A stretch of DNA of 32,000 nt, from assembly GCF_000014785.1 (NCBI RefSeq), contig NC_008340.1, positions 2,610,001 to 2,642,000 on the forward strand. Reading direction: 5' to 3'. Below the pieces are notes generated by a model. The model worked only from the letters and a program-made list of their open reading frames with translations. It did not search any database and was not told the DNA's origin. Shown here in pieces: positions 1 to 19,942 of this stretch (position 1 is the first letter of the stretch; each line of letters starts with the position of its first letter). The translations under genes were made by a program, and so were the position numbers. This stretch comes from Alkalilimnicola ehrlichii MLHE-1 (lineage in GTDB: Bacteria > Pseudomonadota > Gammaproteobacteria > Nitrococcales > Halorhodospiraceae).

Positions 1-575
1 TCAACCACGGTGCTCTGCTCGTCCTGGGGCACGACCCGACCGCCTATATACCGGGGGCCTACGTGCAGTTCCTACGCATCGACGGAACCGAGCTGGGCGA
101 CCCCATCAAGGACGAAAAGAGACTGACCGGCAACCTGCCCGAGGTCATGGCGCAGCTGGACGAGTTGTTGGAGGTGCACATCCAGGTTGCTGTCGACATC
201 GAGGCCGGATCACGGGAGCAGCGCCAGCCCGACTACCCCGTTGTTGCCTTGCAGCAACTCACCCGGAACGCCCTCATCCATCGCGCCTACGAAGGCAGCC
301 ACGCGCCGGTCCGCGTCTATTGGTTCAGAGACCGGGTGGAAATTCAGAACCCCGGCGGACTCTACGGCCAAGTCACCACCGACAACTTCGGTCAGGGTGT
401 CACCGATTACCGCAACCCCCTGATAGCAGAAGCCATGCATATTCTCGGCTACGTACAGAGATTCGGGTTCGGCATCCCATTGGCACAGCGCCACCTGCGG
501 GAAAACGGCAACCCCGACCCCGATTTTCAGTTCGCGCCAGAGTTCCTGGCCGTCACCGTGAGGGCAGTGACGTGA
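1..575 (+). CDS. C-terminal part of a putative ATP-binding/DNA-binding regulator (AlbA_2 + HATPase_c_4, RecG-like type); 5' end outside window
   Basis: Frame 3 is open from base 3 (NHGALLVLGHDPTAYIPGAYVQFLRIDG...) to TGA 573-575. The stretches LTRNALIHRAY, VRVYWFRDRVEIQNPGGL and RNPLIAEAMHILGYVQRFGFGI resemble this family. The stop overlaps the next start (GTGA). Confidence 0.6.
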   Translation, partial: NHGALLVLGHDPTAYIPGAYVQFLRIDGTELGDPIKDEKRLTGNLPEVMAQLDELLEVHIQVAVDIEAGSREQRQPDYPVVALQQLTRNALIHRAYEGSHAPVRVYWFRDRVEIQNPGGLYGQVTTDNFGQGVTDYRNPLIAEAMHILGYVQRFGFGIPLAQRHLRENGNPDPDFQFAPEFLAVTVRAVT

Positions 576-1543
576 TAACCATTGCCTTCTTCAACAACAA
601 GGGTGGCGTCGGCAAGACTGCTTTGGTCTACCATTTGGCCTGGATGTTCGCCGATCAGGGCCGGTCCGTGCTCGCCGCGGACCTGGACCCCCAAGCCAAC
701 CTCTCCACCATGTTCCTGGACGAACAAAGCCTGGAAGGCTTCTGGCCGGAGGGGGACAGCACGCATACCGTACTCTCACCCATACGCCCACTGCTGGAAG
801 GCGAAGGCGGCATCGAAAGCCCTCATGTTGAGCCCATCGAGGACCTAGGCCTGCTGGTCGGAGACCTGGCCCTGTCCGGCTTCGAGGACGAACTCTCCCA
901 GCAATGGCCCCGCTGCCTGGACGGCGAGAAGCGGGCCTTTCGCATCATCGGCGCCTTTGCCGAAGTCATCCAACGTGCCGGCGCCAACCGGGAAGCCGAC
1001 CTGGCGCTGGTGGATGTCGGCCCCAACCTGGGAGCCATCAATCGTGCCGCACTCATTGCCGCAGATTATGTGGTCGTGCCCCTGGGGCCGGACCTCTTTT
1101 CCCTGAAGGGACTGCAAAACCTGGGCCCCACCCTCCGACGGTGGCGTACGGACTGGCGCAAGCGGCTGCAGGAATTACCCACCAATGTACAAGCCCCATC
1201 GGGGCAAATGACGCCGATCGGTTACGTGGTCATGCAGCATTCCGTCCGACTTGACCGGCCGGTCAAGGCGTATGGCAAATGGATGGACCGGATCCCCAGC
1301 ACTTACCACCGTTACGTCCTCGACAAACCGGACGCTGCCAACCTGCGTGTCGACGACGACAGCGAATGTCTGGCTGCATTGAAGGACTATCGGAGCCTGA
1401 TGCCCATGGCTCAGGAAGCCCGCAAGCCCATGTTTCACCTCAAACCGGCGGACGGCGCCATCGGCTCCCACGTCCGTGCGGTACAAAACTGCTACAAAGA
1501 TTTCCGGGACCTGGCAGCGGCTATCGACAGCCGCACGCAGTGA
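572..1543 (+). CDS. ParA/MinD-like P-loop ATPase (323 aa) with no adjacent parB-like gene
   Basis: GTG 572 overlaps the upstream stop. N-terminal deviant Walker A ITIAFFNNKGGVGKT, DLDPQANLS, and Walker-B-like LALVDVGPNLG. The last codons and stop lie in repeat-like sequence (CGCAGTGACGGTGGGGG). Confidence 0.8.
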   Translation: MITIAFFNNKGGVGKTALVYHLAWMFADQGRSVLAADLDPQANLSTMFLDEQSLEGFWPEGDSTHTVLSPIRPLLEGEGGIESPHVEPIEDLGLLVGDLALSGFEDELSQQWPRCLDGEKRAFRIIGAFAEVIQRAGANREADLALVDVGPNLGAINRAALIAADYVVVPLGPDLFSLKGLQNLGPTLRRWRTDWRKRLQELPTNVQAPSGQMTPIGYVVMQHSVRLDRPVKAYGKWMDRIPSTYHRYVLDKPDAANLRVDDDSECLAALKDYRSLMPMAQEARKPMFHLKPADGAIGSHVRAVQNCYKDFRDLAAAIDSRTQ

Positions 1544-2193
1544 CGGTGGGGGCACCCCCCGTCATCGTGATGAGTGCAGGCCCTCCCCCCGGCATCGCGA
1601 GGGCCGAAGGCCCGTGGCGATCCAAGGCGGTAGACTGCCACGTCGGCTTCGCCTCCTCGCAGTGACGGTGTGGGCAACACCCCCCGTCATCGCGAGGGCC
1701 GAAGGCCCGTGGCGATCCAAGGCGGTAGACTGCCGCGTCGGCTTCGCCTCCTCGCAGTGACGGTGTGGGCAACACCCCCCGTCATCGCGAGGGCCGAAGG
1801 CCCGTGGCGATCCAAGGCGGTAGACTGCCACGTCGGCTTCGCCTCCTCGCAGTGACGGTGGGGTAACACCCCCGTCATCGCGAGGGCCGAAGGCCCGCGG
1901 CGATCCAGGGCGGTAGACTGCCACGTCGGCTTCGCCTCCTCGCAGTGACGGTGGGGGCAACACCCCCCGTCATCGCGAGGGCCGAAGGCCCGCGGCGATC
2001 CAGGGCGGTAGACTGCCACGTCGGCTTCGCCTCCTCGCAGTGACGGTGGGGGCGGATCCGCGCTCGCAGTGACGGTGGGGGCCACCACCACCCCGTCCTC
2101 GCGATGACAGGGGTGTTGCCCCCTCCCCGTCCTCGCGAGGAGCGCCCCCTCCCCCCGTCATCGCGAGGAGCGCAGCGACGTGGCGATCCACAC
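1536..2193 (+). repeat. Hairpin-repeat array A1: 5 full about 94-bp units plus degenerate 3'-arm and type-B units
   Basis: GTCATCGCGAGGGCCGAAGGCCCG starts at 1686, 1781, 1874 and 1969 (period 93-95). An earlier unit lies at about 1587-1670. The tail CCGTCATCGCGAGGAGCGCAGCGACGTGGCGATCCACAC ends near 2193. Confidence 0.92.
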
Positions 2194-2294
2194 GTCAGCC
2201 AAAACACAACGGCATCGGCATCAACACATATCGTCGCGTTATGCGCCAAACACGATACTATTGATTTATGCCTCATAGCACATAAACTATCATC

Positions 2295-2546
2295 ATGATC
2301 GATCTCGCCCGCACGCCGAAGCAGGTCGGCAACCTCATCCGTCGAAGCCGGAAGCAACAGGGCCTTACCCAACAAGCGCTTGGGGCGAAGGCCGGTTACC
2401 GGCAGGAGACCATCTCGCTCATCGAGAATGGCCATCCGGCCGCCAAGCTGGAAACCCTCCTGGCTATCCTCGCCGCGCTCGATCTCGAACTCCGGATCGC
2501 ACCACGCTCCAAGGGAAGCGCCGCTGACATCGAGGACCTCTTCTGA
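2295..2546 (+). CDS. hipB: XRE-family HTH antitoxin, HipB-like (83 aa)
   Basis: HTH core QQGLTQQALGAKAGYRQETISLIENG. Its stop overlaps the hipA start (TGATG). An AT-rich leader lies upstream (2216-2294). Confidence 0.8.
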   Translation: MIDLARTPKQVGNLIRRSRKQQGLTQQALGAKAGYRQETISLIENGHPAAKLETLLAILAALDLELRIAPRSKGSAADIEDLF

Positions 2547-3859
2547 TGCCCCGGCGTCGGCGCCACCCTCCGCTACACGTCCTGCTGAACAACCGCCACG
2601 TCGGCCAGCTCCAAAAGGCGGTGGACGGTGCAATCAGTTTTACCTACGAGCAAAACTGGCTGGACTGGGACCACGCCCTACCCGTCTCGCTCTCCCTTCC
2701 CCTCCGCGAAGACCCCTACCGGGGTGCACCGGTGGCGGCAGTGTTCGACAACCTCCTGCCCGATGCCGAGCCGCTCCGCCGCCGCGTTGCCGAGCGCGTT
2801 GGCGCCGAGGGCACCGACGCCTACAGCCTGCTCTCAGCCATCGGCCATGATTGCGTCGGTGCCCTGCAATTCGTCGGCCCCGACGCCCCGGCCCCCGGCG
2901 ACACCACCCAAATTTCCGGCCAGGTCATTGACGAGGACGACATCGGGAGGCTGCTCCGGGGGCTGGCCCAGGCCCCACTGGGGCTGGACCGCGACGAGGC
3001 ATTCCGGATCTCCATTGCCGGGGTGCAGGAGAAGACCGCCCTGCTCCGGCATGAAGGCCGCTGGCTAAAACCCCACGGCACAACCCCGACCAGCCACATC
3101 CTCAAGCCTCAGATCGGCCAGTTGCCGAACGGCATCGACCTGTCCAACAGCGTCGAGAACGAATACTACTGCCTCAAACTGGCTGCCGCCTTCGGGTTGC
3201 CCGTCAACAGGGCCGAGATCCACACCTTTGGGCCCACCCAAGCACTCGTCGTCGAGCGCTTCGATCGCCACTGGACCCACGACGGCCGCCTGCTCAGACT
3301 CCCGCAGGAGGACTGCTGCCAGGCCCTATCCGTCCCGCCAACACGCAAGTACCAGACCGAGGGTGGCCCCGGTATCGTGCAACTTCTTGAACTGCTCAAC
3401 GGCAGCGACACCCCGGCCAAAGACCAGGCGACCGTCTTCAAGGCACAGATCTTCTTCTGGCTGATCGGCGCTACCGACGGGCACGCAAAGAACTTCAGCC
3501 TGTTTCTGCGGCCACAGGGCGCGTTTCGCCTGACCCCGCTGTACGACATCCTGACCGTCCAGCCGAGCCTTGCCGGCCGGCAAATCGAACGCAAGCAGAT
3601 GAAACTGGCCATGGCCGTGGGGCGCGGAAACCGCTACCGGATCCATGAAATCCAGGGCCGCCATTTCCTACAGACCGGCGCCGCCGCCCGCCTGCCGCGC
3701 ACCTTGGCCACCAACGTCATCGAGGACATAGTGACCCGCGCGGACAACGCCATCACGCAGGTCGAAAGCGCCTTGCCCCCCGACTTCCCCCCGGCAATCC
3801 ACGAAAGCGTGAAGGCGGCCATCGCCGGGCGCCTGGGGGTATTGCAGAGGGCGGGGTGA
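2546..3859 (+). CDS. hipA: HipA-family serine/threonine kinase toxin (437 aa), apparently intact
   Basis: Motifs ISIAGVQEKTALL, catalytic-loop-like GATDGHAKNFSLF and LTPLYDILT. The length matches HipA and the gene is coupled to hipB. Confidence 0.9.
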   Translation: MPRRRRHPPLHVLLNNRHVGQLQKAVDGAISFTYEQNWLDWDHALPVSLSLPLREDPYRGAPVAAVFDNLLPDAEPLRRRVAERVGAEGTDAYSLLSAIGHDCVGALQFVGPDAPAPGDTTQISGQVIDEDDIGRLLRGLAQAPLGLDRDEAFRISIAGVQEKTALLRHEGRWLKPHGTTPTSHILKPQIGQLPNGIDLSNSVENEYYCLKLAAAFGLPVNRAEIHTFGPTQALVVERFDRHWTHDGRLLRLPQEDCCQALSVPPTRKYQTEGGPGIVQLLELLNGSDTPAKDQATVFKAQIFFWLIGATDGHAKNFSLFLRPQGAFRLTPLYDILTVQPSLAGRQIERKQMKLAMAVGRGNRYRIHEIQGRHFLQTGAAARLPRTLATNVIEDIVTRADNAITQVESALPPDFPPAIHESVKAAIAGRLGVLQRAG

Positions 3860-3864
3860 GTGAA

Positions 3865-4296
3865 GGCTTCCCCCCGTCATCGCGAGGGCCGGAGGCCCGT
3901 GGCGATCCAGAGCGGTAGACTGCCACGTCGGCTTCGCCTCCTCGCAGTGACGGTGGGGGCGATTTTCCGCTTCCGGCACAGTCAAGTTCTTCAAGAGAGG
4001 GCCGGAGGCTTTCCCCCCCGTCATCGCGAGGGCCGAAGGCCCGTGGCGATCCAGGGCGGTAGACTGCCGCGTCGGCTTCGCCTCCTCGCAGTGACGGTGG
4101 AGGTAGCCTGCCGCTTCCTGCACCGCCCAGTTGTTCAAGAGTCCCGTAGGGGCGTGGCAGTTCAGGGCGGCGGGTGGATCGCCGCGTCGCTGCGCTCCTC
4201 GCGATGACGGGGAGGGGCTGCGCTCCTCGCGATGACGGGGAGGTGCTGCGCTCCTCGCGATGGCGGGGAGGGGCTGCGGGCCTCGCAATGGCGGGG
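3865..4296 (+). repeat. Hairpin-repeat array A2: 2 full units, two copies of a 37-bp insert module, then inverted type-B and short units
   Basis: Full units at about 3871-3958 and 4015-4098. TTCCGCTTCCGGCACAGTCAAGTTCTTCAAGAG sits at 3960-3997 with a diverged copy at 4099-4141. Reversed GGATCGCCGCGTCGCTGCGCTCCTCGCGATGACGGGG is followed by 28-bp reiterations to about 4296. Confidence 0.9.
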
Positions 4297-4437
4297 TGGT
4301 GGTGCTTTGGGCATCGCGGGGGCGGGGGCGTTTGCGGCGCGGAGGATGGTGCTATGATGCTCATAAGGTCGTGCATTTTTAGTATAAAATAGCTATATAG
4401 TGCACTTTTTCCGATCGCTCTACGGAGAACGAGCCCA

Positions 4438-5559
4438 ATGAAAAAGAAGAACACCCTCACCACCCCCCTCATGCTTTCAGGACTGCTGGTCGGCTCTGCC
4501 TTCACCCTGAGCGGGTGCGTGAGCAGTTCCTCCAGCAGTGGGGACGACGCCACCGGCCCGCAGCATGACAGCCAAGGCGTGTTTGCCGCCGGGGCGCCGC
4601 TGAATAACGAGCAGGAGCTCGACGACGTCATCGCAGCGGCCAACCGGGCCGTCGGCGAGGACGGGGTTGAGCAATTCCTTGATGAGTTGGAAGGTGCAAT
4701 CTTCGTCAAGAGCGTCGATGTGGCCGGTGCCTCGACCACCGATGACGCCGATCGCACCACGGCAGCCCGCGACCGGCTGCGCGAGCGTGCCGGCAGGTGG
4801 CGCCAGGAGGACGCACCGGACCGGGTCATCGCCGCCACCGTCCAGCAGGACGACTGCCCCAACGGCGGCCATATCGTCATCACCAGTGACAGCACCGAAA
4901 ACGACCGTTACGAGCGCTGGGATACCACCGTGGCGTTCCACGGCTGCGCGGTGAACACGCCCTCCTGGGGTGACGTGGTGGTGAACGGGCAGCTCGACGA
5001 AACCTGGGAGGAGTCCTGGGGCGATGAAAACTTCGAGAACTACTCCGTCCACTTCGATATCACCGGCAGCGCCGCCGGGGGTGATCTGGTCCTCTCCGGC
5101 GAGGAACACTGGGGCATCCGCGCTCGGTCGGGCGACGTTTTCTTCAGCGAGCAGGTCCGCATCCCGCGGCTCGAGTTCCTGGCCGGCGAGCACTACATCG
5201 GGTTCCTGGACGTGGACCTGAACTACGTGGAGCGAGAGGTGGAGGAGCAGGGGACCACCCGGTACCCCTACGAAGACCACTGGAGCGGTCGCATCGGCAC
5301 CTCCGGCATGCAGGGCCACATCGCGCTGGATACCCCGAAAACCGTCGCCGGGCCGAACTACGATGCCTGCCCCACAGAGGGCGAGTTGACCATCAGCGGC
5401 AATGGCACCGCCTCCGTGCTCTTCGGGATGGACACCGGCATCTCCAACGCAGAAGTCGCCCTGGTGATCAACAACGCGCTCAGCCAAACCTGGGATGACT
5501 GCGACGACTTCTTCGACGAGTTCGACCTGCTCGAAGGCATCTTCCACGGCGGCCTGTAA
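4438..5559 (+). CDS. Hypothetical acidic lipoprotein (373 aa)
   Basis: Signal peptide with lipobox MKKKNTLTTPLMLSGLLVGSAFTLSGC followed by a Ser-rich linker. GGAGAA RBS upstream. No family recognised. Confidence 0.7.
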   Translation: MKKKNTLTTPLMLSGLLVGSAFTLSGCVSSSSSSGDDATGPQHDSQGVFAAGAPLNNEQELDDVIAAANRAVGEDGVEQFLDELEGAIFVKSVDVAGASTTDDADRTTAARDRLRERAGRWRQEDAPDRVIAATVQQDDCPNGGHIVITSDSTENDRYERWDTTVAFHGCAVNTPSWGDVVVNGQLDETWEESWGDENFENYSVHFDITGSAAGGDLVLSGEEHWGIRARSGDVFFSEQVRIPRLEFLAGEHYIGFLDVDLNYVEREVEEQGTTRYPYEDHWSGRIGTSGMQGHIALDTPKTVAGPNYDACPTEGELTISGNGTASVLFGMDTGISNAEVALVINNALSQTWDDCDDFFDEFDLLEGIFHGGL

Positions 5560-5575
5560 GCCCACCTCAGCACCC

Positions 5576-5599
5576 GGCCCCGGGGGGTTCCCCGGGGCC
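5576..5599 (+). terminator. GC-rich hairpin downstream of the lipoprotein gene (possible terminator, no U-tract)
   Basis: GGCCCCGGGG-GGTT-CCCCGGGGCC, a perfect 10-bp stem 17 nt after the TAA stop. No T-run follows, so an intrinsic-terminator role is uncertain. Confidence 0.35.
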
Positions 5600-5654
5600 C
5601 GTGCCGACACCCTCACCGCATTCCAGCCTCAGTCCGGTACCGGTTCAACGGTCG

Positions 5655-5792
5655 CTATCGCCGCCGCGGCGGCCAGGCCAGGCTGAAGTCCCCGTCGTTA
5701 AAGGCCACCGGCAGGTCGGTCTCGTTCAGTCCGCCCACCGCCTGGTAGCGCTCGCGACGGACCACGAGACAGGCGGCGGTCACCGCCCAGTC
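5655..5792 (-). pseudogene. Internal fragment of a family-2 glycosyltransferase (45 codons between two stops)
   Basis: The minus-strand translation DWAVTAACLVVRRERYQAVGGLNETDLPVAFNDGDFSLAW matches the conserved GT2 block (xxACLxVRRxxxxxVGGxxExxxVAxNDxDxxL). It has no start and is bounded by TAG on both sides. Confidence 0.45.
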
Positions 5793-5840
5793 CTAGCACC
5801 ACGCCCCCGTGCTGCGGGCGCTGCACAAGGGGTGGCCGGG

Positions 5841-6227
5841 ATGATCAGCGTATCCATCGTCAGCCACCGCCACGGCACCATGGTGGCCCGGCTGGTCGAC
5901 GCCCTGCTGGCCCTGCCGGAGGTGGGTCAGGTGGTGCTCACCCTCAACCGCCCGGACTGGGTGGCGGGCCTGTTCATCCTGGTGCGGGCACCGGCCTACC
6001 AGGCGGTGGGCGGCTTCGACGAGGACTACTTCCTCCACTACGAAGACGTGGGCCTCTGCGCCCGCCTCTGGGCCGCCGGCCACCCGGTCGCCCTGGACTG
6101 CAACGTCAGCATCAGCCACGACGCCCAATACCGCAGCCACCGGGACCCCATCCACTTCCTCTGGCACGTCGGCAGCCTACTGCGCTACCTCCGCAAACAC
6201 CAAGGCGGCGCCCGCCGCCCGCAGTAA
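5841..6227 (+). pseudogene. Family-2 glycosyltransferase with a large internal deletion (128 aa left)
   Basis: The N-terminal GT2 start MISVSIVSHRHGTMVARLVDALLALPEVGQVVLTLN joins directly to the C-terminal block DWVAGLFILVRAPAYQAVGGFDEDYFLHYEDVGLCARLWAAGHPV. About 90-100 aa, including the DxD region, are missing. The stop lies in repeat-like sequence. Confidence 0.55.
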
Positions 6228-6244
6228 TCGCGGGGCACCACCTA

Positions 6245-6549
6245 CCCCGTCATCGCGAGGGCCGAAGGCTTTCTCCCCGTCATCGCGAGGGCCGAAGGCT
6301 TTCTCCCCGTCATCGCGAGGGCCGAAGGCCCGTGGCGATCCAGAGGGGTAGACTGCCACGTCGCTTCGCTCCTCGCAGTGACGGTGGGGGCGGATCCGCG
6401 CTCGCAGTGACAGTGGGGGGCGGATCCGCGCTCGCAGTGACAGTGGGGGGCCACCAACGCCCCGTCATCGCGAGGAGCGAAGCGACGCGGCGATCCACAC
6501 CCCGCCATGGACTGCCACGGCCCTACAGGGCACGCAGTGACGGTGGGCC
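6245..6549 (+). repeat. Hairpin-repeat array A3: 2 short 30-bp units, 1 full unit, 2 3'-arm units, 1 type-B unit
   Basis: CCGTCATCGCGAGGGCCGAAGGCTTTCTCC x2, then a full unit, GGCGGATCCGCGCTCGCAGTGACAGTGGGG x2, then CCGTCATCGCGAGGAGCGAAGCGACGCGGCGATCCACAC... A degenerate 3'-arm motif already begins at about 6219. Confidence 0.92.
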
Positions 6550-6606
6550 CGACACATGCCGTACAATACAAGCGTGGATGCCATACTCCCTGGGAGGCCC
6601 GGGACA

Positions 6607-6852
6607 ATGAAACAGGAAACGACCAAGATCACCATCCGTCTACCGCGACAAGACGTCGAGTTCGCCAAGGCCTACGCCAGGGCGCACGGCCTCAGCATGA
6701 CTGAAGTCATTGATCGTTACCTGCGTCGCCTGCGGGCGCTAGAGCGCCACCAGCCCAGCCCCGAACTGGACGCGATCACCGGCCTGCTGCCAGCCGACCT
6801 GGACGCTGAACAGGCGTACCGAGACCACTTAGTCGAGAAACATCGCCCGTGA
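6607..6852 (+). CDS. vapB: Ribbon-helix-helix-type antitoxin partner of the PIN toxin (81 aa)
   Basis: KITIRLPRQDVEFAKAYARAHGLSMTEVIDRYL is a typical RHH/CopG-like N-terminus. GGGAGG RBS lies at about 6591. The stop overlaps the vapC start (GTGA). ATG 6556 is an alternative start. Confidence 0.7.
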   Translation: MKQETTKITIRLPRQDVEFAKAYARAHGLSMTEVIDRYLRRLRALERHQPSPELDAITGLLPADLDAEQAYRDHLVEKHRP

Positions 6853-7250
6853 TCATGCTGGACCTGAACGTTCTTCTGGACGTTCTGCAAAAAAGGGCGC
6901 CGCATTATCAGGCATCCGCCGCCGTCCTCGAGCATGTCATCCACGGTGAAGAACAAGGCGCACTCAGCGCGCACGCAGTCACTACGGTTCACTACCTGGT
7001 GAGCCGGTACGCGACTCGCGCCGCGGCGGACGGCGCCCTGGATTGGCTTCTCCGGCACTTTCACGTGTGTGCAGTGGGCCGTGACGAACTGGAACAGGCC
7101 CGGTCCCTTGGCTGGCCCGACTTCGAGGACGCGGTTCTGGCATGTGTCGCGCAGAGTGCCGGGTGCAGCTACATCGTGACGCGAAATATCAAGGACTTCG
7201 AACGATCACCGGTAACGGCGTTAACGCCGCAGGAGTGGCTACTTCGCTGA
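6849..7250 (+). CDS. vapC: PIN-domain ribonuclease toxin VapC (133 aa)
   Basis: MLDLNVLLD (first acidic residue), WPDFEDAVLACVAQ and YIVTRNIKDF are typical PIN signatures. The gene is coupled to the upstream RHH gene. Confidence 0.85.
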   Translation: MIMLDLNVLLDVLQKRAPHYQASAAVLEHVIHGEEQGALSAHAVTTVHYLVSRYATRAAADGALDWLLRHFHVCAVGRDELEQARSLGWPDFEDAVLACVAQSAGCSYIVTRNIKDFERSPVTALTPQEWLLR

Positions 7251-7265
7251 GCTGAGTCCGAACCC

Positions 7266-7592: not shown

Positions 7593-7666
7593 CCCTTCGT
7601 AGGCTTGCACAGCCAGTGTAAGGAACAACGGCTACGTTGAGATCAGGCCAAGGAAGACATATCATA

Positions 7667-8089: not shown

Positions 8090-8090
8090 C

Positions 8091-9139: not shown

Positions 9140-9160
9140 GAGACACCGCTTGCCTCCCCA

Positions 9161-9701
9161 CCCCGTCATCGCGAGGGCCGAAGGCTTTCCCCCCGTCATC
9201 GCGAGGGCCGAAGGCTTTCCCCCCGTCATCGCGAGGGCCGGAGGCCCGTGGCGATCCAGAGGGGTAGACTGCCGCGTCGGCTTCGCCTCCTCGCAGTGAC
9301 GGGGTGGCCCCTCCCCCCGTCATCGCGAGGGCCGGAGGCCCGTGGCGATCCAGGGCGGTAGACTGCCGCGTCGGCTTCGCCTCCTCGCAGTGACGGGGTG
9401 GCCCCTCCCCCCGTCATCGCGAGGGCCGGAGGCCCGTGGCGATCCAGGGCGGTAGACTGCCGCGTCGGCTTCGCCTCCTCGCAGTGACGGGGTGGCCCCT
9501 GCCCCGTCATCGCGAGGGCCGGAGGCCCGTGGCGATCCAGAGGGGTAGACTGCCGCGTCGGCTTCGCCTCCTCGCAGTGACGGGGTGGCCCCTCCCCCCG
9601 TCATCGCGAGGGCCGAAGGCCCGTGGCGATCCAGGGCGGTAGACTGCCGCGTCGGCTTCGCCTCCTCGCAGTGACGGGGTGGCCCCTCCCCCCGTCATCG
9701 C
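9161..9701 (+). repeat. Hairpin-repeat array A5: 2 short units, 5 full units, and a 6th unit cut after CCGTCATCGCA
   Basis: Full-unit starts at 9225, 9319, 9413, 9506 and 9600 (period 93-94). The last unit is truncated at 9701, where the hipB-like coding sequence begins. Confidence 0.93.
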
Positions 9702-9953
9702 AAGGGGTGGACCCAGGAAGAACTCGCTGAGCGAGTCGGCGTTGGCGTGATCACGATCCGCCGGGTTGCCAAGGGCTCCCCCCGGGTGGCCATCGGCACT
9801 TACTTTGAAGCGGCCGCACTGGTTGGGGTTTCACTGTTCACCGATGATCCGGACAGGCTCAAACGCGAGCATGCAACCCAGCAGGAACGGCTGACGCTGC
9901 TACCCAAGCGAGTCCGTCGTCAAACACCAGAGCCCCTCGACGATGATTTCTAG
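9702..9953 (+). pseudogene. 5'-truncated XRE/HipB-like antitoxin gene (N-terminus replaced by the repeat array)
   Basis: The frame reads ...KGWTQEELAERVGVGVITIRRVAKGSPRVAIGTYFEAAALVGVSL, i.e. helix 2-3 of an XRE HTH without helix 1 or a proper start. Only an internal GTG at 9747 is available. Confidence 0.6.
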
Positions 9954-10185
9954 CAACCGCGCTTATGTCTGGATCTGGCTGCCCGGCCAGACATCGCCTG
10001 TAGTAGCCGGACTTGTTGAGCGCGACGACCAAGACCGGTACCGCTTTGCCTATGGTCGGCGCTATCTGGCCCGTGAAGATGCAATCAGCCTGTATCCCGA
10101 CGAACTGCCCTGCTGTAGTCATCGCCGCCAGCGGCATGTGCGAATGACGAACCACGGCTTCCCCAGCATTTCCCTAACGGCCTGA
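9943..10185 (+). pseudogene. HipA N-terminal fragment (80 codons, homology lost after about 55 aa)
   Basis: AYVWIWLPGQTSPVVAGLVERDDQDRYRFAYGRRYLAREDAISLYPDELP is the HipA N-terminal subdomain pattern. The kinase core is absent. Confidence 0.65.
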
Positions 10186-10331
10186 AACATGCAGCAGCGG
10201 TGTTAGACTAAACCGAGGTCAAAACCCTCATCGCCACGTGGTGGATCAAAGGCCAGAACATTGCCCACGAGCCCCAGGAATACACAAGGCTCCGAGAAAA
10301 ATCGCCGTCCTCAAGAATTGCCCATGGAGAC

Positions 10332-10766
10332 ATGATGCGGACTCGAGCCCGCCCCAAAAGGAATTCCAAGCGCCGGCTACATCCTGAATTGACCGTCGAG
10401 CGGCGCCGGGCACTCGCCCAGTGTGTCAAATATGTCGGCAGCCCCTTGCACAAGCGCAACCCCGGTGATTTCGGGCTGACGCCGCCCGTTGCGGCCCGTC
10501 CCGGGAAGAGCCTGTGTGATGATGTCTCGATCTTCGAGCGAGACAAGGCTCAGGTGCTGCTGCGAGAGGGAGTGCAAGCGGGCCTTGTAAGCCGTGATGC
10601 CGACGAGGGCTTCCCGCGCCACATCTGGATGGTTCACGAAGGGCGAGTCATCGAGGCACGTTGTGACAACATGGAAGCCGGAACCTACCATGGCTACCCC
10701 CTGGAAGCCGACGATCCCATGGCCGATGCTGTAAAGCGCGAATGGAGCCGGAGGCAAGCAGAATGA
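10332..10766 (+). CDS. Hypothetical basic 144-aa protein, first gene of an unknown two-gene operon
   Basis: GGAGA RBS. Arg/Lys-rich N-terminus. Conserved-looking blocks YVGSPLHKRNPGDFGL and GTYHGYPL. Its stop overlaps the next start (ATGA). No family recognised with confidence. Confidence 0.6.
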   Translation: MMRTRARPKRNSKRRLHPELTVERRRALAQCVKYVGSPLHKRNPGDFGLTPPVAARPGKSLCDDVSIFERDKAQVLLREGVQAGLVSRDADEGFPRHIWMVHEGRVIEARCDNMEAGTYHGYPLEADDPMADAVKREWSRRQAE

Positions 10767-12097
10767 GCGATACCCTGCGATTCGACTGGGAGTGGCTGGC
10801 CTACCCAGAATTGCCTGCTGAAGAGGCTGTGACCTTTGCTGACCTGAGCATCCGGCTCAACGACAAGGCCATGACTCGCCTCTACGACGTGGCCGCCAAG
10901 ACCGAGCGCGACAACCTTTTCGCTGCCGCGTACCCGTTGGCTCAATTTCTAGCGGAAAACTGGTGGCGCATCCGCTGGGAGCCCGCGCCGGCCAGTCTTT
11001 CAAACGCGGGGCCACAGTGGCGTCTGGCGCATAACATCGCAGCCGCTGGTGCCGGCTATGTCTGGCCCAACATCACCTTCCACGGCGATGGCGAGCGGAT
11101 GTTCATGCACGTCGGACCCCACACCTCTGAGTCCTCCGCCGTGCAGTTCGTCTCGGAGGGAAATGGTGTGCTCGACGCCGCAATGTTCGAAGCAGAGGCC
11201 GATCGTTTCATGGAAGGCGTCTTGGCCCGACTGCAAGCCTGTGGCCACCCGGATACGGAGCTCGAACAGCTCTGGCGAGCGGTCCAGGCCGAGCGTTCCA
11301 GCAACGAAGACTGTGAGCGGCGGCGGCTGGAGGCCATGGCGGGCTTCGATCCCGACGAAGCGCCAGAGGCCATGCTGGACGAACTGTTGCAGCTCGAACA
11401 GCGCCTTGGGGTTTCAGCCATCCGAGAATTGGCTGCGGCCTCGCGGGCAAACACACTGGACCATGTGCGAACCCTGGAAGAGGCACTTTGTGCTCGGGGC
11501 CTTCGGTATCAGGTCCCGGATACGAGTCGAATGAGGATTGAATGGCCTGCCCCGCCATGGCGCAGGGCTGTCGAAGTCGCAAAGGCCGCTCGACAGGCCT
11601 GGGGCCTGAACAATGGCCCACTGGATAACACGCAGCTCGCCGCCATCGTGGATCTACCGCGCGAGCAGCTTGACTCTTCGGCACCTGAAGCAGTGCCCTA
11701 CAGCGCGAGCCTGCGCGGGGGGGAAGAGGGCGACAGACTAGTGTTCAGAACCGGCCATCGGCACGGACGCCGCTTCGCAATCGGTCGCCTGATGGGTGAC
11801 GCCTTCTACTCACCCGGGGAAGGGGGGGCACTGGCGGCCGCAACGGATGCCCGGACGGGACGCCAGAAGTTTCAGCGGGCCTTCGCGCAGGAGCTGCTGT
11901 GCCCATTCGAGGCATTGAGCGACTTTCTCAACCTGGGCCAGGACTGGGATGCATGTGACGATATCACCCCCCCGAACGAGGACCGCATCGAAGAGGCAGC
12001 GGAGTATTTCGACGTCTCACCGGTGCTCGTTCAGAGCACGCTTGTCAACCACAACGTCTTGCCCCGCGACGTACTCGAAATAACGGACGCCGCCTGA
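10763..12097 (+). CDS. Hypothetical 444-aa protein whose C-terminal region resembles an ImmA/IrrE (M78) domain lacking the HExxH motif
   Basis: GGAGG lies 8 nt upstream of ATG 10763. N-terminal block AAAYPLAQFLAENWWRIRWEP. The C-terminal GRRFAIGRLMGDAF...RQKFQRAFAQELLCPFEAL aligns with the M78 pattern RRFTLAHELGHLL...E.EANRFAAELLMP. Confidence 0.65.
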   Translation: MSDTLRFDWEWLAYPELPAEEAVTFADLSIRLNDKAMTRLYDVAAKTERDNLFAAAYPLAQFLAENWWRIRWEPAPASLSNAGPQWRLAHNIAAAGAGYVWPNITFHGDGERMFMHVGPHTSESSAVQFVSEGNGVLDAAMFEAEADRFMEGVLARLQACGHPDTELEQLWRAVQAERSSNEDCERRRLEAMAGFDPDEAPEAMLDELLQLEQRLGVSAIRELAAASRANTLDHVRTLEEALCARGLRYQVPDTSRMRIEWPAPPWRRAVEVAKAARQAWGLNNGPLDNTQLAAIVDLPREQLDSSAPEAVPYSASLRGGEEGDRLVFRTGHRHGRRFAIGRLMGDAFYSPGEGGALAAATDARTGRQKFQRAFAQELLCPFEALSDFLNLGQDWDACDDITPPNEDRIEEAAEYFDVSPVLVQSTLVNHNVLPRDVLEITDAA

Positions 12098-12121
12098 GAA
12101 CCCGAGGAGCCAAACAACACA

Positions 12122-12619
12122 CTGTCATCGCGAGGGCCGAAGGCTTTCCCCCGTCATCGCGAGCCCCCCACCCCGCTGCGCGGGCCCGAATCAACGAGGA
12201 ACGGGGCACCCCCGGTCATCGCGAGGGCCGAAGGCCCGTGGCGATCCAGGGCGGTAGACTGCCGCGTCGGCTTCGCCTCCTCGCAGTGACGGTGGGGGCG
12301 ACTTTCCGCTTCCGGCACAGTCAAGTTCTTCAAGAGGGCCGAAGGCCCGTGGCGATCCAGGGCGGTAGACTGCCACGTCGGCTTCGCCTCCTCGCAGTGA
12401 CGGGGTGGCCCCTCCCCCCGTCATCGCGAGGGCCGAAGGCCCGTGGCGATCCAGAGGGGTAGACTGCCACGTCGGCTTCGCCTCCTCGCAGTGACGGTGG
12501 GGATGGGGCCCCGCTCGCAGTGACGGTGTGGATGGGCCCCCGCTCGCAGTGACGGTGGGGGCGGGTCCGCTCCTCGCGGTGACGGTGGGGGCGGGTCCAC
12601 GCTTGCAGTGGCGATGAGG
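12122..12619 (+). repeat. Hairpin-repeat array A6: 1-2 short units, 3 full units (one carrying the 37-bp insert module), 4 3'-arm units
   Basis: Full units lie between about 12214 and 12495. TTCCGCTTCCGGCACAGTCAAGTTCTTCAAGAG is at 12300-12337. Reiterated GCTCGCAGTGACGGTGKGG-type units run from 12496 to 12619. Confidence 0.92.
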
Positions 12620-12648
12620 CACCACCACCCAAAAAGGAGAACACCACC

Positions 12649-14031
12649 ATGGACGACCCCACCCTCCTCCACCACGGCGGCGCTGACGGCGTCACCGGCA
12701 GTTGCCACCAACTCTACGCCAGCCCCGACCACTCACTCCTCATCGACTGCGGCCTCTTCCAAGGCGAAGACGCCGGCCCCGACCCCCTCGCCCAACACAC
12801 CGTCGACTTCGACGTCGACACCCTCCAGGCCCTCGTCCTCACCCACGTCCACATCGACCACGTCGGCCGGCTGCCCTACCTGCTGGCCGCCGGCTACCGC
12901 GGCCCCATCCTCTGCAGCCACCCCTCCGCCCACCTGCTGCCGCTGGTCATTGACGACGCCCTGCGCATCGGCTTCACCCGTGACGGCCAACTCATCGCGC
13001 GCTTCCAGCAGCAGGTCCAAAACCAACTGACCCCCCTCAAATACAGCCGCTGGCACACCGTCACCGACAACCGCCACCTCACCCTCAAGGTCCGCCTGGA
13101 GCGCGCCGGCCACATCCTCGGCTCCGCCTACGTCAAAGTCGCCATCCGGGACAAACGCACCGGCCGCACACACCGCACCGTCTTCTCAGGCGACCTGGGC
13201 GCCCCCGGCTCGCCGCTGCTGCCCGCCCCGCAATCGCCCCACCACGCCGACCTCCTCGTCCTGGAGGCCACCTACGGCGACCGCAGCCACGAAAACCGCG
13301 ACCAGCGCCGCCACCGCCTGCGCCAGGCCATCGAACACGCCGTGCAGGACGGCGGCACCGTCATCATCCCCGCCTTCAGCATCGGCCGCACCCAGGTGCT
13401 GCTCCACGAGCTGGAAGCGCTCACCCACACCGCCCAAGGCCCCTGGCGCCACCTGCGCATCATCGTCGACTCCCCCCTGGCCGCCCGCTTCAACCGCGTC
13501 TACCGCCGCCTGAAACCCTACTGGGACCAAGAGGCCAGAAAACGGGCCCGACAAGGCCGCCACCCCCTCAACTTCAGCCGCCTGCACACCGTCGACAGCC
13601 ACGCCCAACACCAACACACCGTCACCACCCTGGCCCAGGGCGGCCACCCGGCCGTGGTCATCGCCGCCAGCGGCATGTGCGCCGGCGGCCGCGTCGTCAA
13701 CTACCTGAAAGCCATGCTCGGCGACCCACGCCACCACGTGCTGTTCGTCGGCTACCAAGCGGAAGGCACCCCCGGGCGGGACATCCAGCGCTACGGCCCA
13801 ACCGGCGGCTGGGTAGACCTGGACGGAGAACGGTTCGACATCCGCGCCGGCGTCACCACCATCGGCGGCTACTCCGCCCATGCAGACCAACAGGACCTAC
13901 TGCGGTTCGTACAACAGATGAAGCGCCCACCCGGCACCATCCGACTGGTGCACGGCAGCGCCCGCGCCCGGGAGACACTGGCCAACGCCCTCACCCGGCA
14001 GGGCCATACCGTGACCCAGGGAGGGTCATGA
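12649..14031 (+). CDS. Beta-CASP family metallo-beta-lactamase-fold nuclease (RNA-metabolising MBL hydrolase), 460 aa
   Basis: AAAGGAGAA RBS. LLIDCGLFQG, HxHxDH motif LTHVHIDHVGRLPYL, later SGDLG, IPAFSIGRTQ, GYSAHADQ and RLVHGS, typical of beta-CASP enzymes. Confidence 0.85.
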   Translation: MDDPTLLHHGGADGVTGSCHQLYASPDHSLLIDCGLFQGEDAGPDPLAQHTVDFDVDTLQALVLTHVHIDHVGRLPYLLAAGYRGPILCSHPSAHLLPLVIDDALRIGFTRDGQLIARFQQQVQNQLTPLKYSRWHTVTDNRHLTLKVRLERAGHILGSAYVKVAIRDKRTGRTHRTVFSGDLGAPGSPLLPAPQSPHHADLLVLEATYGDRSHENRDQRRHRLRQAIEHAVQDGGTVIIPAFSIGRTQVLLHELEALTHTAQGPWRHLRIIVDSPLAARFNRVYRRLKPYWDQEARKRARQGRHPLNFSRLHTVDSHAQHQHTVTTLAQGGHPAVVIAASGMCAGGRVVNYLKAMLGDPRHHVLFVGYQAEGTPGRDIQRYGPTGGWVDLDGERFDIRAGVTTIGGYSAHADQQDLLRFVQQMKRPPGTIRLVHGSARARETLANALTRQGHTVTQGGS

Positions 14032-14076
14032 CTTCAGAGGCCCGGCACTCCCGCCACGGCGGGGCCCCGCCCCCTC

Positions 14077-14399
14077 CCCCGTCACTGCGAGCGCCGAAGG
14101 GGCGTGACAGTCCATACGGCGTGTGGATCGCCGCGTCGCTTCGCTCCTCGCGATGACGGGGGCGGCGCCCCCACCGTCACCGCGAGAGCGGACCCGCCCC
14201 CACCGTCACTGCGGGCGGGGGCCCATCCACACCGTCACTGCGAGGAGGCGAAGCCGACGTGGCAGTCTACCCCTCTGGATCGCCACGGGCCTTCGGCCCT
14301 CGCGATGACGGGGGAAAGCCTTCGGCCCTCGCGATGACGGGGGAAAGCCTTCGACCCTCGCGATGACGGTGAGAAAGCCCTCGGCCCTCACGATAACGG
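14077..14399 (-). repeat. Hairpin-repeat array A7, inverted orientation: type-B, 3 3'-arm units, 1 full unit, 4 short units as read on the + strand
   Basis: Reverse complements of all unit types are present, e.g. GGAGGCGAAGCCGACGTGGCAGTCTACCCCTCTGGATCGCCACGGGCCTTCGGCCCTCGCGATGACGGGGG and GAAAGCCTTCGGCCCTCGCGATGACGGGG reiterated. Confidence 0.9.
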
Positions 14400-14514
14400 A
14401 AGCACCACCCCCAACTAATCCTTCCGATAGGTTGCACCGCACCATCCCCCATGCTTTACTCCCTAACATCGTTCACCCAGTGAACGACACAACCCTTCGC
14501 ACCCCCCAAGGATG

Positions 14515-14560
14515 GCCGTGCCACCGCATGTCATCCTTGCGGTAGCGTGCCCGAAAGCCG
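14515..14560 (+). repeat. Left copy of the 46-bp direct repeat flanking the ATPase/DUF4276 module
   Basis: GCCGTGCCACCGCATGTCATCCTTGCGGTAGCGTGCCCGAAAGCCG, 45/46 identical to 16355-16400. Confidence 0.9.
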
Positions 14561-14657
14561 GCACCAGGATATGAAAGCAGACGGCTCCCAAACGACATGC
14601 GACAAGGTTTTGGGACCCTACACGTATTGAGGCACACCGAATGAAGGGACTGATTCA

Positions 14658-15788
14658 ATGACATCGGAATCGGACCTGTGTAGCCGAATTTCACGCGTGA
14701 GCATCCGCGGGTTCCGTAGCCTAGCCTGTGTCGAGAACCTTGAGCTCCCGCAACTAGCGGTCCTGATTGGGGCAAACGGATCGGGCAAATCCAACCTCAT
14801 CCGATTCTTCGAGATGCTGAGCTACTCGCTCAAGGGCCGGAACCTTCAGCAGTTCGTGATCGAAAAAGGGGGCGGTGACGACCAGCTCTTTTTCGGAGCG
14901 CGGACCACGTCCCGCCTGGAAGCAGAGATCGCGCTGGAGACTGAGCAGGGCACCAATGAGTACCGGATGGCCCTGACCCACGTCGCACCAGACTCCCTGG
15001 CCTTCGCCGAAGAGGCTTTCCGGTTCTCCCGGCACGACCGCGAAGGCAGCAGCGACTGGATTCACCTCCCCATGCCGGCTCAGGAATCGGGCCTGCCGGT
15101 GGCCGCAGCGGATAGTGGTCAGCGGTCGCGGCGCACAGCACGCACGCTCCTTTACCTGCTGCGCAACTGCGCCACCTTCCAGTTTCATGACACCTCGGCA
15201 AAGGCCAGTCTGAACATGCGCTGGGATGAGAGCGAAAACGCACGCATGCGCTCGGATGGCGGAAACCTGGCCCCCATACTGCTGCATCTTTCTCAGGAGC
15301 ATCCCCGGCGTTACCGGCTCATCACGCGGCAGATTCAACGCGTTCTCCCCGTGTTCGAAGACTTCGACCTGCAATCGACGGGGGGCAAGGTGTTGCTGCG
15401 CTGGCGCGCCCGAAACAGCGACAACACCTTCGGGCCGCATCTGACATCGGACGGCTCGCTGCGACTGTTTTGCCTATTCACCCTGCTCAATCTGCCGGGG
15501 GAAATGCTCCCGGACGTACTCATGATCGACGAACCGGAACTGGGCCTTCATCCGCACGCTATCGCCCTGACCGCCGATATGCTCAAGAGCCTCTCCGTCC
15601 ATCGGCAAGTCTTCATCGCCACCCAGTCACCACTGATGGTCGACGCCTTCGACGTGGATAACATCCTCGTCGCCAGCCTGAAAGACGGCGCAACAGACCT
15701 GACGCCCATGGACCGTGACGAATACCGGGTCTGGCTTGAAAGCGGCTACCAGCCCTCGGATCTATGGCTCAAAGAACCGGTGGGCTGA
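14658..15788 (+). CDS. AAA_21/ABC-type (SMC-like) ATPase, 376 aa, defence-associated type
   Basis: Walker A LIGANGSGKSNL close to the N-terminus, distal Walker B LLMIDEPELGLHP and signature-like TSDGSLR. This split-ABC architecture is typical of OLD/AbiL/PARIS-type ATPases. Confidence 0.85.
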   Translation: MTSESDLCSRISRVSIRGFRSLACVENLELPQLAVLIGANGSGKSNLIRFFEMLSYSLKGRNLQQFVIEKGGGDDQLFFGARTTSRLEAEIALETEQGTNEYRMALTHVAPDSLAFAEEAFRFSRHDREGSSDWIHLPMPAQESGLPVAAADSGQRSRRTARTLLYLLRNCATFQFHDTSAKASLNMRWDESENARMRSDGGNLAPILLHLSQEHPRRYRLITRQIQRVLPVFEDFDLQSTGGKVLLRWRARNSDNTFGPHLTSDGSLRLFCLFTLLNLPGEMLPDVLMIDEPELGLHPHAIALTADMLKSLSVHRQVFIATQSPLMVDAFDVDNILVASLKDGATDLTPMDRDEYRVWLESGYQPSDLWLKEPVG

Positions 15789-15791
15789 GTG

Positions 15792-16354
15792 ATGAGTTCC
15801 AGTGTTCGATTGCTTGTGGTCTGCGAGGGACAGACAAGGGCGGAGGAAACGTCAACATCGAGCGACTGGCTATCCACCTGGCCAACGAATACCCCAACCA
15901 TGACTTTGTCACCACGTTGGTCGACCTCTACGGGTTCAGTGACCGGGAAGGACGAAGTCGGACAGAGCTTGAAGAGGCCATCCGCGAAGCCGTCCTAAGC
16001 CGTCGTCGAGACATTCAGACGGATAGAGTCATCCCGTATGTGCAGCAGTATGAATTCGAAGCGCTGCTGTTCAGCGATATTCAGGGTTTTCAATGGGTGG
16101 TTGATGGCTGGTCCACTGGGGCAGAGCGCCAACTTCAGAGCATCGTCGATAATTACTCGGACCCCGAGCAAATCAACGACAACCCGACCACCGCGCCCTC
16201 GAAACGCCTGGAAGCCATCTTCCGCGGTTACTATCGGAAGACCGAACATGGCCCGATCATTGCCGAAGAAATCGGGTTGGCAGTGATCCGCAGTCAGTGC
16301 CCAGGCTTCGACGGTTGGATAACCAAACTGGAAGGCCTTAATCGACCGCGTTAA
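15792..16354 (+). CDS. DUF4276-family (TOPRIM-like) protein interrupted by an apparent single-base frameshift near 15849-15851
   Basis: The N-terminal hallmark MSSSVRLLVVCEGQTRAEET is in frame 3 (15792-15851). The rest, VNIERLAIHLANEYPNHDFVTTLVDLYGF...EFEALLFSD...PSKRLE, is in frame 2 to TAA 16354. The only frame-2 ATG (15764) overlaps the ATPase gene and lacks the VxCEGxTE block. Confidence 0.7.
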
Positions 16355-16400
16355 GCCGTGCCACCGCATGTCATCCTTGCGGTAGCGTGCTCGAAAGCCG
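16355..16400 (+). repeat. Right copy of the 46-bp direct repeat, starting immediately after the DUF4276 stop
   Basis: GCCGTGCCACCGCATGTCATCCTTGCGGTAGCGTGCTCGAAAGCCG. Confidence 0.9.
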
Positions 16401-16433
16401 ACCCCACACGTCACCGGGGGCCCCACACCCTCA

Positions 16434-16628
16434 CCCCGTCAATGCGAGCCCCGAACCCTTCACCCTCGTCACTGCGAGCCCCCGAAGGGGGCGCGGCAGT
16501 CCACCGCCCTGGATCGCCACGGGCCTTCGGCCCTCGCGATGACGGGGGAAAGCCTTCGGCCCTCACGATGACGGGGTGATGCCTCCCCACCGGCCCTGCG
16601 AACCGCCAAAAGGGGCGCGGCAGTCCAC
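16434..16628 (-). repeat. Hairpin-repeat array A8, inverted and degenerate (about 1 full unit plus arm units), abutting the glycan locus
   Basis: CCCTCGTCACTGCGAGCCCCCGAAGGGGGCGCGGCAGTCCACCGCCCTGGATCGCCACGGGCCTTCGGCCCTCGCGATGACGGGGG plus GAAAGCCTTCGGCCCTCACGATGACGGGG. It ends 5 nt before ATG 16633. Confidence 0.8.
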
Positions 16629-16632
16629 AACC

Positions 16633-19921: not shown

Positions 19922-19942
19922 TCCGACCACGGCAAGGACATC

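Follow-up and report, generated by a model that had tools for sequence, protein, structure and literature searches.

Repeat arrays in a toxin–antitoxin and defence island of Alkalilimnicola ehrlichii are probably BIME-like clusters of CGTC-tagged REP palindromes

Several described families of repetitive extragenic palindromes (REPs) resemble the repeat arrays that lie between the toxin–antitoxin (TA) and defence modules of a 32,000-nucleotide stretch of the Alkalilimnicola ehrlichii MLHE-1 chromosome (NC_008340.1, positions 2,610,001 to 2,642,000; hereafter called "the window"). The CGTC-tagged REP superfamily is characterized by a CGTC or TGTC tag, a stem starting with AT, a short loop, and a CCA-type tail, and its members predominantly form head-to-head dimers that are extragenic and occur across phyla, with no transposase found beside them (Di Nocera et al. 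2013, PMC3733652). In the bacterial interspersed mosaic elements (BIMEs) of Escherichia coli and Stenotrophomonas, two REP subtypes alternate (Nunvar et al. 2010, PMC2817692), and in the REPINs, two inverted REPs form one long hairpin (Bertels & Rainey 2011, PMC3116915). The Neisseria intergenic mosaic element (NIME) arrays, composed of dRS3 and RS elements, have been proposed to promote the exchange of adjacent genes; recombination end points have been mapped in these arrays, which were stated to be unseen outside Neisseria (Bentley et al. 2007, PMC1797815). A. ehrlichii is mentioned neither in PMC3733652 or its supplements nor in the BIME paper PMC2817692.

A previous analysis of the window from its letters alone (the sequence-only reading) proposed a cassette-like island of an undescribed architecture, in which co-oriented modules are each delimited by a repeat array. 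The arrays are real. Tandem Repeats Finder detects 94–95-nt units at 1585–2053 (5.0 copies) and 9218–9706 (5.2 copies) with 96% matches, as well as 28–30-nt units at every boundary that the sequence-only reading had named. Moreover, the 12-nt head CGTCAYYGCGAG (at most one mismatch) occurs 75 times in the window, as compared to 1.37 expected, and all but one of these occurrences fall within 1534–16573, with none in 16574–32000. The novelty of the architecture did not hold up: the arrays are probably BIME-like mosaic clusters of CGTC-tagged REP palindromes, a resident chromosomal repeat that is dense here, rather than a dedicated cassette-capture machine, and the idea that such arrays exchange their neighbours had already been put forward for the Neisseria NIMEs.

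In a full repeat unit, two related palindromes of ~35–37 nt, Y and Z, are joined as a head-to-head dimer with the tags outward. Each palindrome consists of an unpaired CGTC, a 5-bp outer stem, bulges, a 3–6-bp inner stem, a GAA-type loop, and a CCA or CTA tail, as represented by the Y monomer, CGTC-ATCGC-GA-GGGCC-GAA-GGCCC-GTG-GCGAT-CCA, and the Z monomer, CGTC-ACTGC...GCAGT-CTA. Each of the window's 43 complete monomers opens with CGTC or TGTC, and the same tag is found in other genomes. The tail is CCA in Y and in the additional subtypes W, V, and U, CTA in Z, and CTC in some other taxa. Since the CGTC tag, the two-tier hairpin, and the CCA/CTA tail match the published description of the CGTC REPs, we assign the palindromes to this class. 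The hairpin is also reflected in covariation: for 41 distinct monomers, drawn both from this genome and from others, 91.4% of the cells are paired, 7 of the 11 pairs carry compensatory changes, and 68 cells have double changes, as compared to 22.7 in shuffles (none of the 500 shuffles is as high). The Y–Z dimer is predicted to fold as one imperfect hairpin of ~90 nt (−28.8 kcal/mol, z = −4.6), and the predicted folding of a whole array (A5, see below) as RNA gives z = −6.1.

Within the arrays, the Y and Z subtypes alternate in orientation at a 94–95-nt period. Truncated half-units of 28–30 nt, the "heads" y, z, and w, stand in tandem at the array edges, and fixed linkers (the S spacer, the T element, and the W–V end dimer) recur in several arrays, both inside and outside the island. 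The resulting grammar, (y)n(YZ)n(z)n W V, is common to all of the arrays, including the island-external ones. Inward-pointing heads (>>>>><<<) and tandem truncated edge heads are also present in unrelated metagenome-assembled genomes (MAGs), at L021 1299–1614, L008 166–353, and L037 1215–1351 (L numbers denote the fetched loci). Therefore, the half-unit runs seem to belong to the repeat family as such.

We compared MLHE-1, represented by the window and by the re-sequenced chromosome CP183314 (loci L003, L004, and L048), which is 100% identical to the window across 1–17250, with a second A. ehrlichii strain that has the same region (CP184336, loci L002, L041, and L047; hereafter called "strain 2"). 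Eight arrays lie in the window. Array A1 (1534–2190) reads w> (Y> Z<)x5 z< W> and is reduced to a single dimer in strain 2. Array A2 (3870–4300) consists of Y> Z<, an S spacer, and Y> Z<, followed by the inverted W< w< w< w<. Array A3 (6245–6545) reads y> y> Y> z< z< W> V<, and array A4 (7268–7610) reads y> y> Y> Y> Z< W> plus a degenerate V. Array A5 (9161–9706), y> y> (Y> Z<)x5, has two dimers in strain 2, and array A6 (12123–12613), composed of y>, a T element, Y> Z<, an S spacer, (Y)Z< Y> Z<, and z<x4, is mostly deleted there. Finally, array A7 (14080–14410) reads W< z> Z> Y< y< y< y<, and array A8 (16437–16628) reads U> Y< y< U>, of which strain 2 lacks the Y< y< part. A ninth array, A0, is located immediately upstream of the window, and a tenth at the far end of the MLHE-1 surface-glycan locus (L048 20450–20786). 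Contrary to the sequence-only reading, the arrays are not uniformly polar: A7, A8, and A0 are inverted relative to A1–A6.

Most of the modules are indeed bounded by arrays; the exceptions are the junction between a hipA remnant and the following 144-aa open reading frame (ORF), which carries no array, and the HEC-01 defence unit, which is bounded by a 46-bp direct repeat. The arrays begin 11–49 nt past the stop codons and fill the inter-operon gaps, with A6 and A8 leaving at most 36 nt ahead of the next start codon. They are extragenic between the called genes, except for the stop codon of the ParA-like gene and the edge of a hipB remnant. For these two genes, the proposal that gene truncations coincide with array edges is borne out: the ParA-like stop codon is inside the REP head at 1534–1545, and A5 runs exactly up to the hipB remnant, whose N-terminus it has replaced. 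Owing to the difference in the adjoining array, the ParA-like protein has 323 residues in MLHE-1 and 344 in strain 2. When spurious ORFs encoded by the arrays were used as queries, only five matches were obtained, one of which is an ORF of the A0 array (Mlg_2297).

How do these repeats compare with the known ones? The published CGTC REPs share with them the tag, the AT-starting stem, the tail, the predominance of head-to-head extragenic dimers, and the occurrence in many phyla. In contrast, the A. ehrlichii stem is two-tiered, with 5 + 5–6 bp and bulges, while the published stem is a plain one of 8–9 bp; the host is a gammaproteobacterium, while the published family is mostly alphaproteobacterial; and the large clusters called rare there are dominant here. 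The BIMEs share the two alternating REP subtypes, the regular spacing, the fixed linkers, the tandem amplification of modules, the strong length polymorphism between strains, and the location after the 3′ ends of genes. The BIMEs are, however, of the GTAG type, have a cognate REP-associated tyrosine transposase (RAYT), and number hundreds of copies genome-wide, whereas the present repeats are of the CGTC type, have no RAYT in ~0.45 Mb of gene lists, and are low in copy number outside one region; the tandem truncated edge heads are also foreign to the BIME pattern. The REPINs share the inverted pair that forms one long hairpin, and the doublet clusters, but differ in that their definition calls for a cognate RAYT present in single copy and for dispersal as singlets. 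The NIME arrays likewise have a CGTC-type REP as their base, synteny with strain-variable repeat numbers, and variable neighbours. They are composed of 20-bp dRS3 elements separated by more than 100 RS families, occur in abundance throughout the genome of a naturally transformable host, and contain in dRS3 the target of a phage recombinase, whereas the A. ehrlichii arrays use few linker types, are concentrated in one island, and have no known recombinase. As for the genes, defence and TA islands beside surface-polysaccharide loci are familiar, and the present one shares with them a Wadjet operon, HEC-01, hipBA, vapBC, a module resembling toxin–antitoxin–chaperone (TAC) systems, remnants, insertion sequences (ISs), a group II intron, and turnover between strains; what is not typical of such islands is that REP arrays occupy nearly every gap between modules.

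The position of the arrays behind the stop codons, together with the very stable predicted structure and the established roles of E. coli REPs and BIMEs in Rho-dependent termination and in gyrase and IHF binding, would also suit transcriptional insulators or RNA elements, whose hairpins would stop or dampen read-through and shield the upstream 3′ ends, so that the TA operons work independently. We consider this unlikely as the explanation of the arrays. No U-tract terminators are present at the arrays, and a scan there for intrinsic terminators and promoters yielded nothing above shuffled sequences. The orientation relative to transcription is inconsistent, since A7 and A8 are inverted and both A0 and the L048 array are located in divergent promoter regions. 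In addition, the copy number varies freely between the strains, and other TA operons of the species lack arrays. Under the BIME-like interpretation, an RNA role is retained: by analogy with the E. coli BIMEs, the arrays probably act as 3′ stem-loops, either mRNA stabilizers or attenuators, between the co-oriented operons.

The layout of small, co-oriented modules separated by repeats superficially resembles an integron cassette array or a CRISPR-type array, to which we assign a negligible probability. The sequence-only reading had already noted that integron hallmarks are missing, in agreement with our results: no integrase is called from −5.8 to +46 kb, where only IS transposases appear; positions 1–17000 contain no attC-like R″/R′ core pair (RYYYAAC...GTTRRRY), with 0.8 expected; and the boundaries are multi-copy REP arrays. 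A CRISPR array was rejected, as the DNA between the repeats consists of recurring linker motifs or whole operons instead of unique spacers, and the window has no cas genes and no Rfam match. The integron integrase annotated in the MLHE-1 genome (ABI55737, 694 aa) also belongs elsewhere, its protein accession number being ~1,900 below those of the island genes; it shares a 90%-identity protein cluster with IS66 transposases, and may thus be disrupted or fused.

The two strains reveal how the arrays change. The copy number differs at every array, with 7 full dimers in MLHE-1 and 4 in strain 2 at A0, 5 and 1 at A1, and 5 and 2 at A5. The identity of the dimers is 0.94–0.96 within the large arrays and 0.95–0.97 between orthologous arrays, but mostly lower, 0.85–0.95, between different arrays. 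As orthologous arrays keep their own signature while varying in copy number, the arrays are shown to grow and shrink in place.

Besides these copy-number changes, we counted five larger structural differences between the strains, and only the first has both junctions in arrays. In this difference, a 2.5-kb block containing a lipoprotein gene and glycosyltransferase debris (window 3897–6400) is missing from strain 2. The junctions, at 3896/3897 in A2 and at ~6400 in A3, are both inside REP units: the single array of strain 2 equals the left part of A2 joined to the right part of A3, and the block found only in MLHE-1 has REP pieces at both ends. At least one 2.5-kb module has thus been gained or lost by REP-to-REP recombination. 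Three of the other four differences do not use arrays. Second, HEC-01 is missing from strain 2 and is bounded by the 46-bp repeat. Third, the beta-CASP nuclease gene and most of A6 have been eroded in strain 2 by three deletions at 8-nt-scale microhomologies, one of which fuses a REP-like element to codon 43; the result is a pseudogene remnant of 259 aa (L002 19494–19700 versus window 12110–13434). Fourth, an IS21-family istA/istB pair is inserted outside the arrays, in the hipA remnant of strain 2 (window 10109–10116; L002 13162–17479), where an 8-nt alignment overlap suggests a target duplication; the insertion also includes, next to the IS21 on the opposite strand, a gene for a group II intron reverse transcriptase/maturase. 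Fifth, the surface-glycan gene set beyond marR is entirely different in strain 2, with no similarity to MLHE-1 past marR over the ~9 kb that follow in strain 2 (L041 11743–20780). The glycan locus, which the sequence-only reading had called conserved, is therefore strain-specific. The prediction that the locus would be polymorphic between relatives was correct, while the prediction that the breakpoints would lie inside the arrays applies to one difference of the five. Accordingly, the view of the arrays as recombination landing pads is upheld by their copy-number changes and by the one module with both junctions in REPs, but not by the three differences that avoid them.

The divergence of the unique segments is also polymorphic from module to module, in the range of 0–9%. 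It is 1.2% in the ParA-like gene, 0.4% in hipBA, 0% in vapBC, and 0.2% in mqsA/secB, followed by 1.5–1.9%, by 3.9% in the beta-CASP gene, and by 9% in marR; the spacer between jetA and the SLFN gene is also 0% divergent, and the divergence increases toward the glycan locus. This heterogeneity is highly significant (chi-square P = 3e-38). Such a mosaic would fit recombination tracts ending between the modules, and would equally fit the usual gradient beside a replaced O-antigen-type locus.

These strain differences bear on another interpretation, in which the arrays are maintained in the manner of the NIMEs because they raise the rate at which the flanked TA and defence modules are swapped, either by homologous recombination or by a recombinase acting on the CGTC heads, as an integron-free cassette system. 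Portable homology or a recombinase target around each small operon would then turn the island into an exchange site for TA modules, anti-phage modules, and the glycan locus, the first of its kind outside Neisseria; as a whole and in this consequence, we regard the interpretation as rather improbable. It is consistent with the one polymorphic block that has REP pieces at both ends, with the divergence steps between the array-separated modules, with the bracketing of the strain-specific glycan locus by A8 and the L048 array, with the high local density described below, and with the precedent of the NIME arrays, which are built from dRS3, a CGTC-1 REP. Several observations argue against it. The flanks had been singled out for a search for recombinase and RAYT genes, and no such gene is present among those called from −5.8 to +46 kb. 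HEC-01 is flanked by its private 46-bp repeat instead of REPs, the beta-CASP deletions rely on microhomology, and the IS21/intron insertion lies outside the arrays. Furthermore, other TA and defence loci of the species are without arrays, hipBA relatives elsewhere are not flanked by them, and the ordinary replacement of an O-antigen locus would produce the same divergence gradient. Taken together, these comparisons mark the arrays as substrates of recombination but do not establish a dedicated cassette system.

Is the repeat family tied to TA and defence genes? In 351 kb of A. ehrlichii sequence outside the island (329.6 kb of strain 2 and 21.5 kb of MLHE-1), four clusters with five full dimers were found, all beside ordinary genes: one follows a tRNA-Asn gene, one separates hemE from gltD, one follows ubiA (between ubiA and an Na–Pi transporter gene), and one lies between the genes for Bax1-I and a HAD hydrolase. 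Conversely, at least eight other TA or defence loci within the A. ehrlichii sample have no arrays, including a type III CRISPR-Cas locus, a type I restriction–modification/GmrSD locus, two FitA–PIN pairs, MNT/HEPN-like pairs, a DUF4258–MqsA-like pair, and a DUF4160/DUF2442 pair. Therefore, the REP family is not specific to TA or defence modules, and the association proposed in the sequence-only reading finds itself largely in the situation which that reading had taken to mean coincidence, namely the occurrence of the same arrays around ordinary genes. One of the outside clusters, the array at L050 11340–11867, comes immediately behind a tRNA-Asn gene with its terminator, beside a gene for a 1237-aa RP005_N protein, and may be another island junction.

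The distribution in other taxa is similar. The exact 22-mer core of the REP is present, beside housekeeping genes, in 34 loci of Acidobacteriota, Omnitrophota, and Alpha-, Beta-, and Gammaproteobacteria, mostly as dimers and sometimes as arrays. Pfam assigns 110 families to the 78 proteins flanking these loci. The 25 most frequent ones comprise no TA or defence family, and the families listed include sugar epimerases, NadC, response regulators, fumarase, and GroEL. In one locus, L024, three arrays surround ORFs whose translations, read by eye, resemble rmlD, rmlC, and a capsule-export protein. No arrays accompany the 80 metagenomic hipA relatives (62–75% identity, 524 kb), and the REP core was not found in viral contigs. 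An identical 35-nt REP monomer, CGTCATCGCGAGGGCCGAAGGCCCGTGGCGATCCA, occurs in Betaproteobacteria (Georgfuchsia and Thiobacillus) and in an Acetobacteraceae MAG (L007, L015, L020, L025, and others). Together with the 22-nt core in Acidobacteriota and Omnitrophota, this makes for a striking cross-phylum identity in a non-coding repeat.

We propose the following explanation, in which the BIME-like interpretation is placed in its genomic setting. The REP arrays are extremely dense in a hypervariable stretch that leads from the Wadjet operon through decaying TA and defence modules to the strain-specific surface-glycan locus, and they would accumulate there because the region tolerates long non-coding inserts. 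The arrays may expand by slippage or unequal crossing-over. Their hairpins could stall replication or transcription, which would favour breakage and recombination, and the combination of dispersed homology and hairpins would make the arrays fragile and recombinogenic.

Some points weigh against this explanation. The island has 9 arrays in 19.8 kb, versus 4 clusters in the outside sample, an excess of ~40-fold (Poisson P = 3e-12) over a sample that was reached through multi-copy IS genes and is thus IS-anchored and non-random, and that covers ~10% of strain 2 plus 21.5 kb of MLHE-1. Ordinary REPs do not explain this crowding; the outside sample extrapolates to tens of clusters per genome, not hundreds. 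In Pseudomonas, recently acquired regions are "REP deserts" and REPs avoid islands (PMC3390384), the opposite of what is found here. The RNA roles of the arrays rest on the folding prediction and the analogy to E. coli, and the gene lists sampled, ~0.45 Mb in total including −5.8 to +46 kb around the island, contain no mobilizing enzyme identified for the A. ehrlichii REPs. Finally, the comparison covers two strains, so that each event may be either a gain or a loss. The local crowding of the arrays remains the unusual and unexplained feature of the island.

A conceivable source of the crowding is local over-production near a RAYT-like or other HUH transposase gene just outside the region examined. 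In Thauera, more than one-third of the REPs are located near a rayt gene, and the tandem truncated heads resemble what repeated cutting at the CGTC end might produce. We consider this highly improbable, as no Y1_Tnp gene is present in the ~0.45 Mb of gene lists and the CGTC REPs have been reported without a dedicated transposase.

Should the arrays be no more than REP/BIME clusters, the locus is of modest value: it documents a CGTC-type REP family with a BIME-like grammar in a haloalkaliphilic gammaproteobacterium. It also provides a clear case in which recombination between REPs has added or removed a block of genes, and it shows that a flexible defence island can accumulate REPs in large numbers, contrary to the "REP desert" rule of Pseudomonas. 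If the crowding is selected, the NIME idea of arrays as local recombination enhancers would extend to defence-gene turnover in another lineage, and the locus would bear on the assembly of defence islands without dedicated mobile-element machinery.

The modules between the arrays were assigned with Pfam, PADLOC, and NCBIfam. All of the genes called by PGAP from the regulator to the glycan locus are on the + strand, as the sequence-only reading had stated, the exception to its claim being one 42-aa ORF. Its gene content was correct for the ParA-like protein, hipBA, vapBC, the MqsA-like antitoxin, the beta-CASP nuclease, and the AAA_21 ATPase with DUF4276; its putative mqsR (7637–8089) is an ORF with no family match. 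The Wadjet jetABC operon lies just upstream of the window on the opposite strand. The window opens with the 3′ part (1–575) of a gene for an SLFN_AlbA_2/HATPase_c_4 ATP-binding protein or regulator (Pfam HATPase_c_4), which starts upstream and encodes 376 aa in full (called at L003 2597–3727). The gene for the ParA-like P-loop ATPase (AAA_31/CbiA) follows at 572–1543. Beyond A1, the hipB–hipA TA operon occupies 2295–3859 (HTH_3; Couple_hipA and HipA_C). The block absent from strain 2 (genes at 4438–6227) contains the lipoprotein gene (4438–5559) and the truncated glycosyltransferase-like ORF (5601–6227); it has no Pfam match and weak glycosyltransferase matches in NCBIfam, and its G+C content at third codon positions (GC3) of 0.83–0.85 is coding-like. 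Next is the vapB (DUF6364)–vapC (PIN) TA operon at 6607–7250.

The module at 7637–9139 consists of the candidate toxin ORF (7637–8089), an MqsA-like antitoxin gene (8091–8705; MqsA_antitoxin E = 2.6e-17), and a SecB-like gene (8702–9139), whose match is weak (E = 0.0027, below the family cut-off). Judging from the gene order and these matches, it has a TAC-like layout, in which the toxin is only a candidate. The 150-aa ORF is unannotated, ends 2 nt ahead of the MqsA-like gene, and is moderately coding-like (GC3 0.64). It matches nothing in Pfam, PADLOC, NCBIfam, or the PDB, and so may encode a toxin of a new kind. The hipB remnant at the end of A5 and the adjacent N-terminal stub of hipA were recognized in translation frames at 9702–10185. 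A two-gene operon at 10332–12097, encoding 144 aa and 444 aa, has no Pfam, PADLOC, or NCBIfam match, and the larger product is named "IrrE N-terminal-like" in UniRef. The beta-CASP metallo-beta-lactamase nuclease gene (Beta-Casp, RMMBL, and Lactamase_B) is located at 12649–14031. All of these modules are on the + strand.

The AAA_21 ATPase and DUF4276 genes (14658–16354, + strand) constitute the PADLOC candidate defence system HEC-01 (HEC-01A, E = 6e-110; HEC-01B, E = 2e-141). HEC-01 is a discrete 1.84-kb unit flanked by the 46-bp direct repeat GCCGTGCCACCGCATGTCATCCTTGCGGTAGCGTGCYCGAARGCCG, with the left copy at 14515–14560 and the right copy at 16355–16400, both on the + strand. Strain 2 has a single copy, the empty site, at about L041 11265–11310, and the repeat was found nowhere else among the fetched loci. 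The unit may have arisen by site-specific insertion or been lost by repeat-mediated deletion, neither of which is favoured. In a plasmid comparison, the HEC-01 unit gave no matches and the island gave only distant hipA matches (73–76% identity). A tRNA scan of the window detected none, and Rfam gave no match.

The gene for a MarR-type regulator (16633–16956, + strand) is the first of the strain-specific surface-glycan region, which in MLHE-1 continues from 16957 to 32000 and onward with rml and pseudaminic-acid-type genes. Within this locus, at window 28000–32000, the GC content falls to 48–55%, and sulfotransferase and IS3/IS21-type transposase genes are present. The two MLHE-1 chromosome assemblies differ in length by 11.6 kb (CP000453, 3,275,944 bp; CP183314, 3,264,331 bp). 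The PseB protein of MLHE-1 belongs to a 90%-identity protein cluster with proteins of Halomonas, Billgrantia, and Marinobacter, which suggests horizontal transfer.

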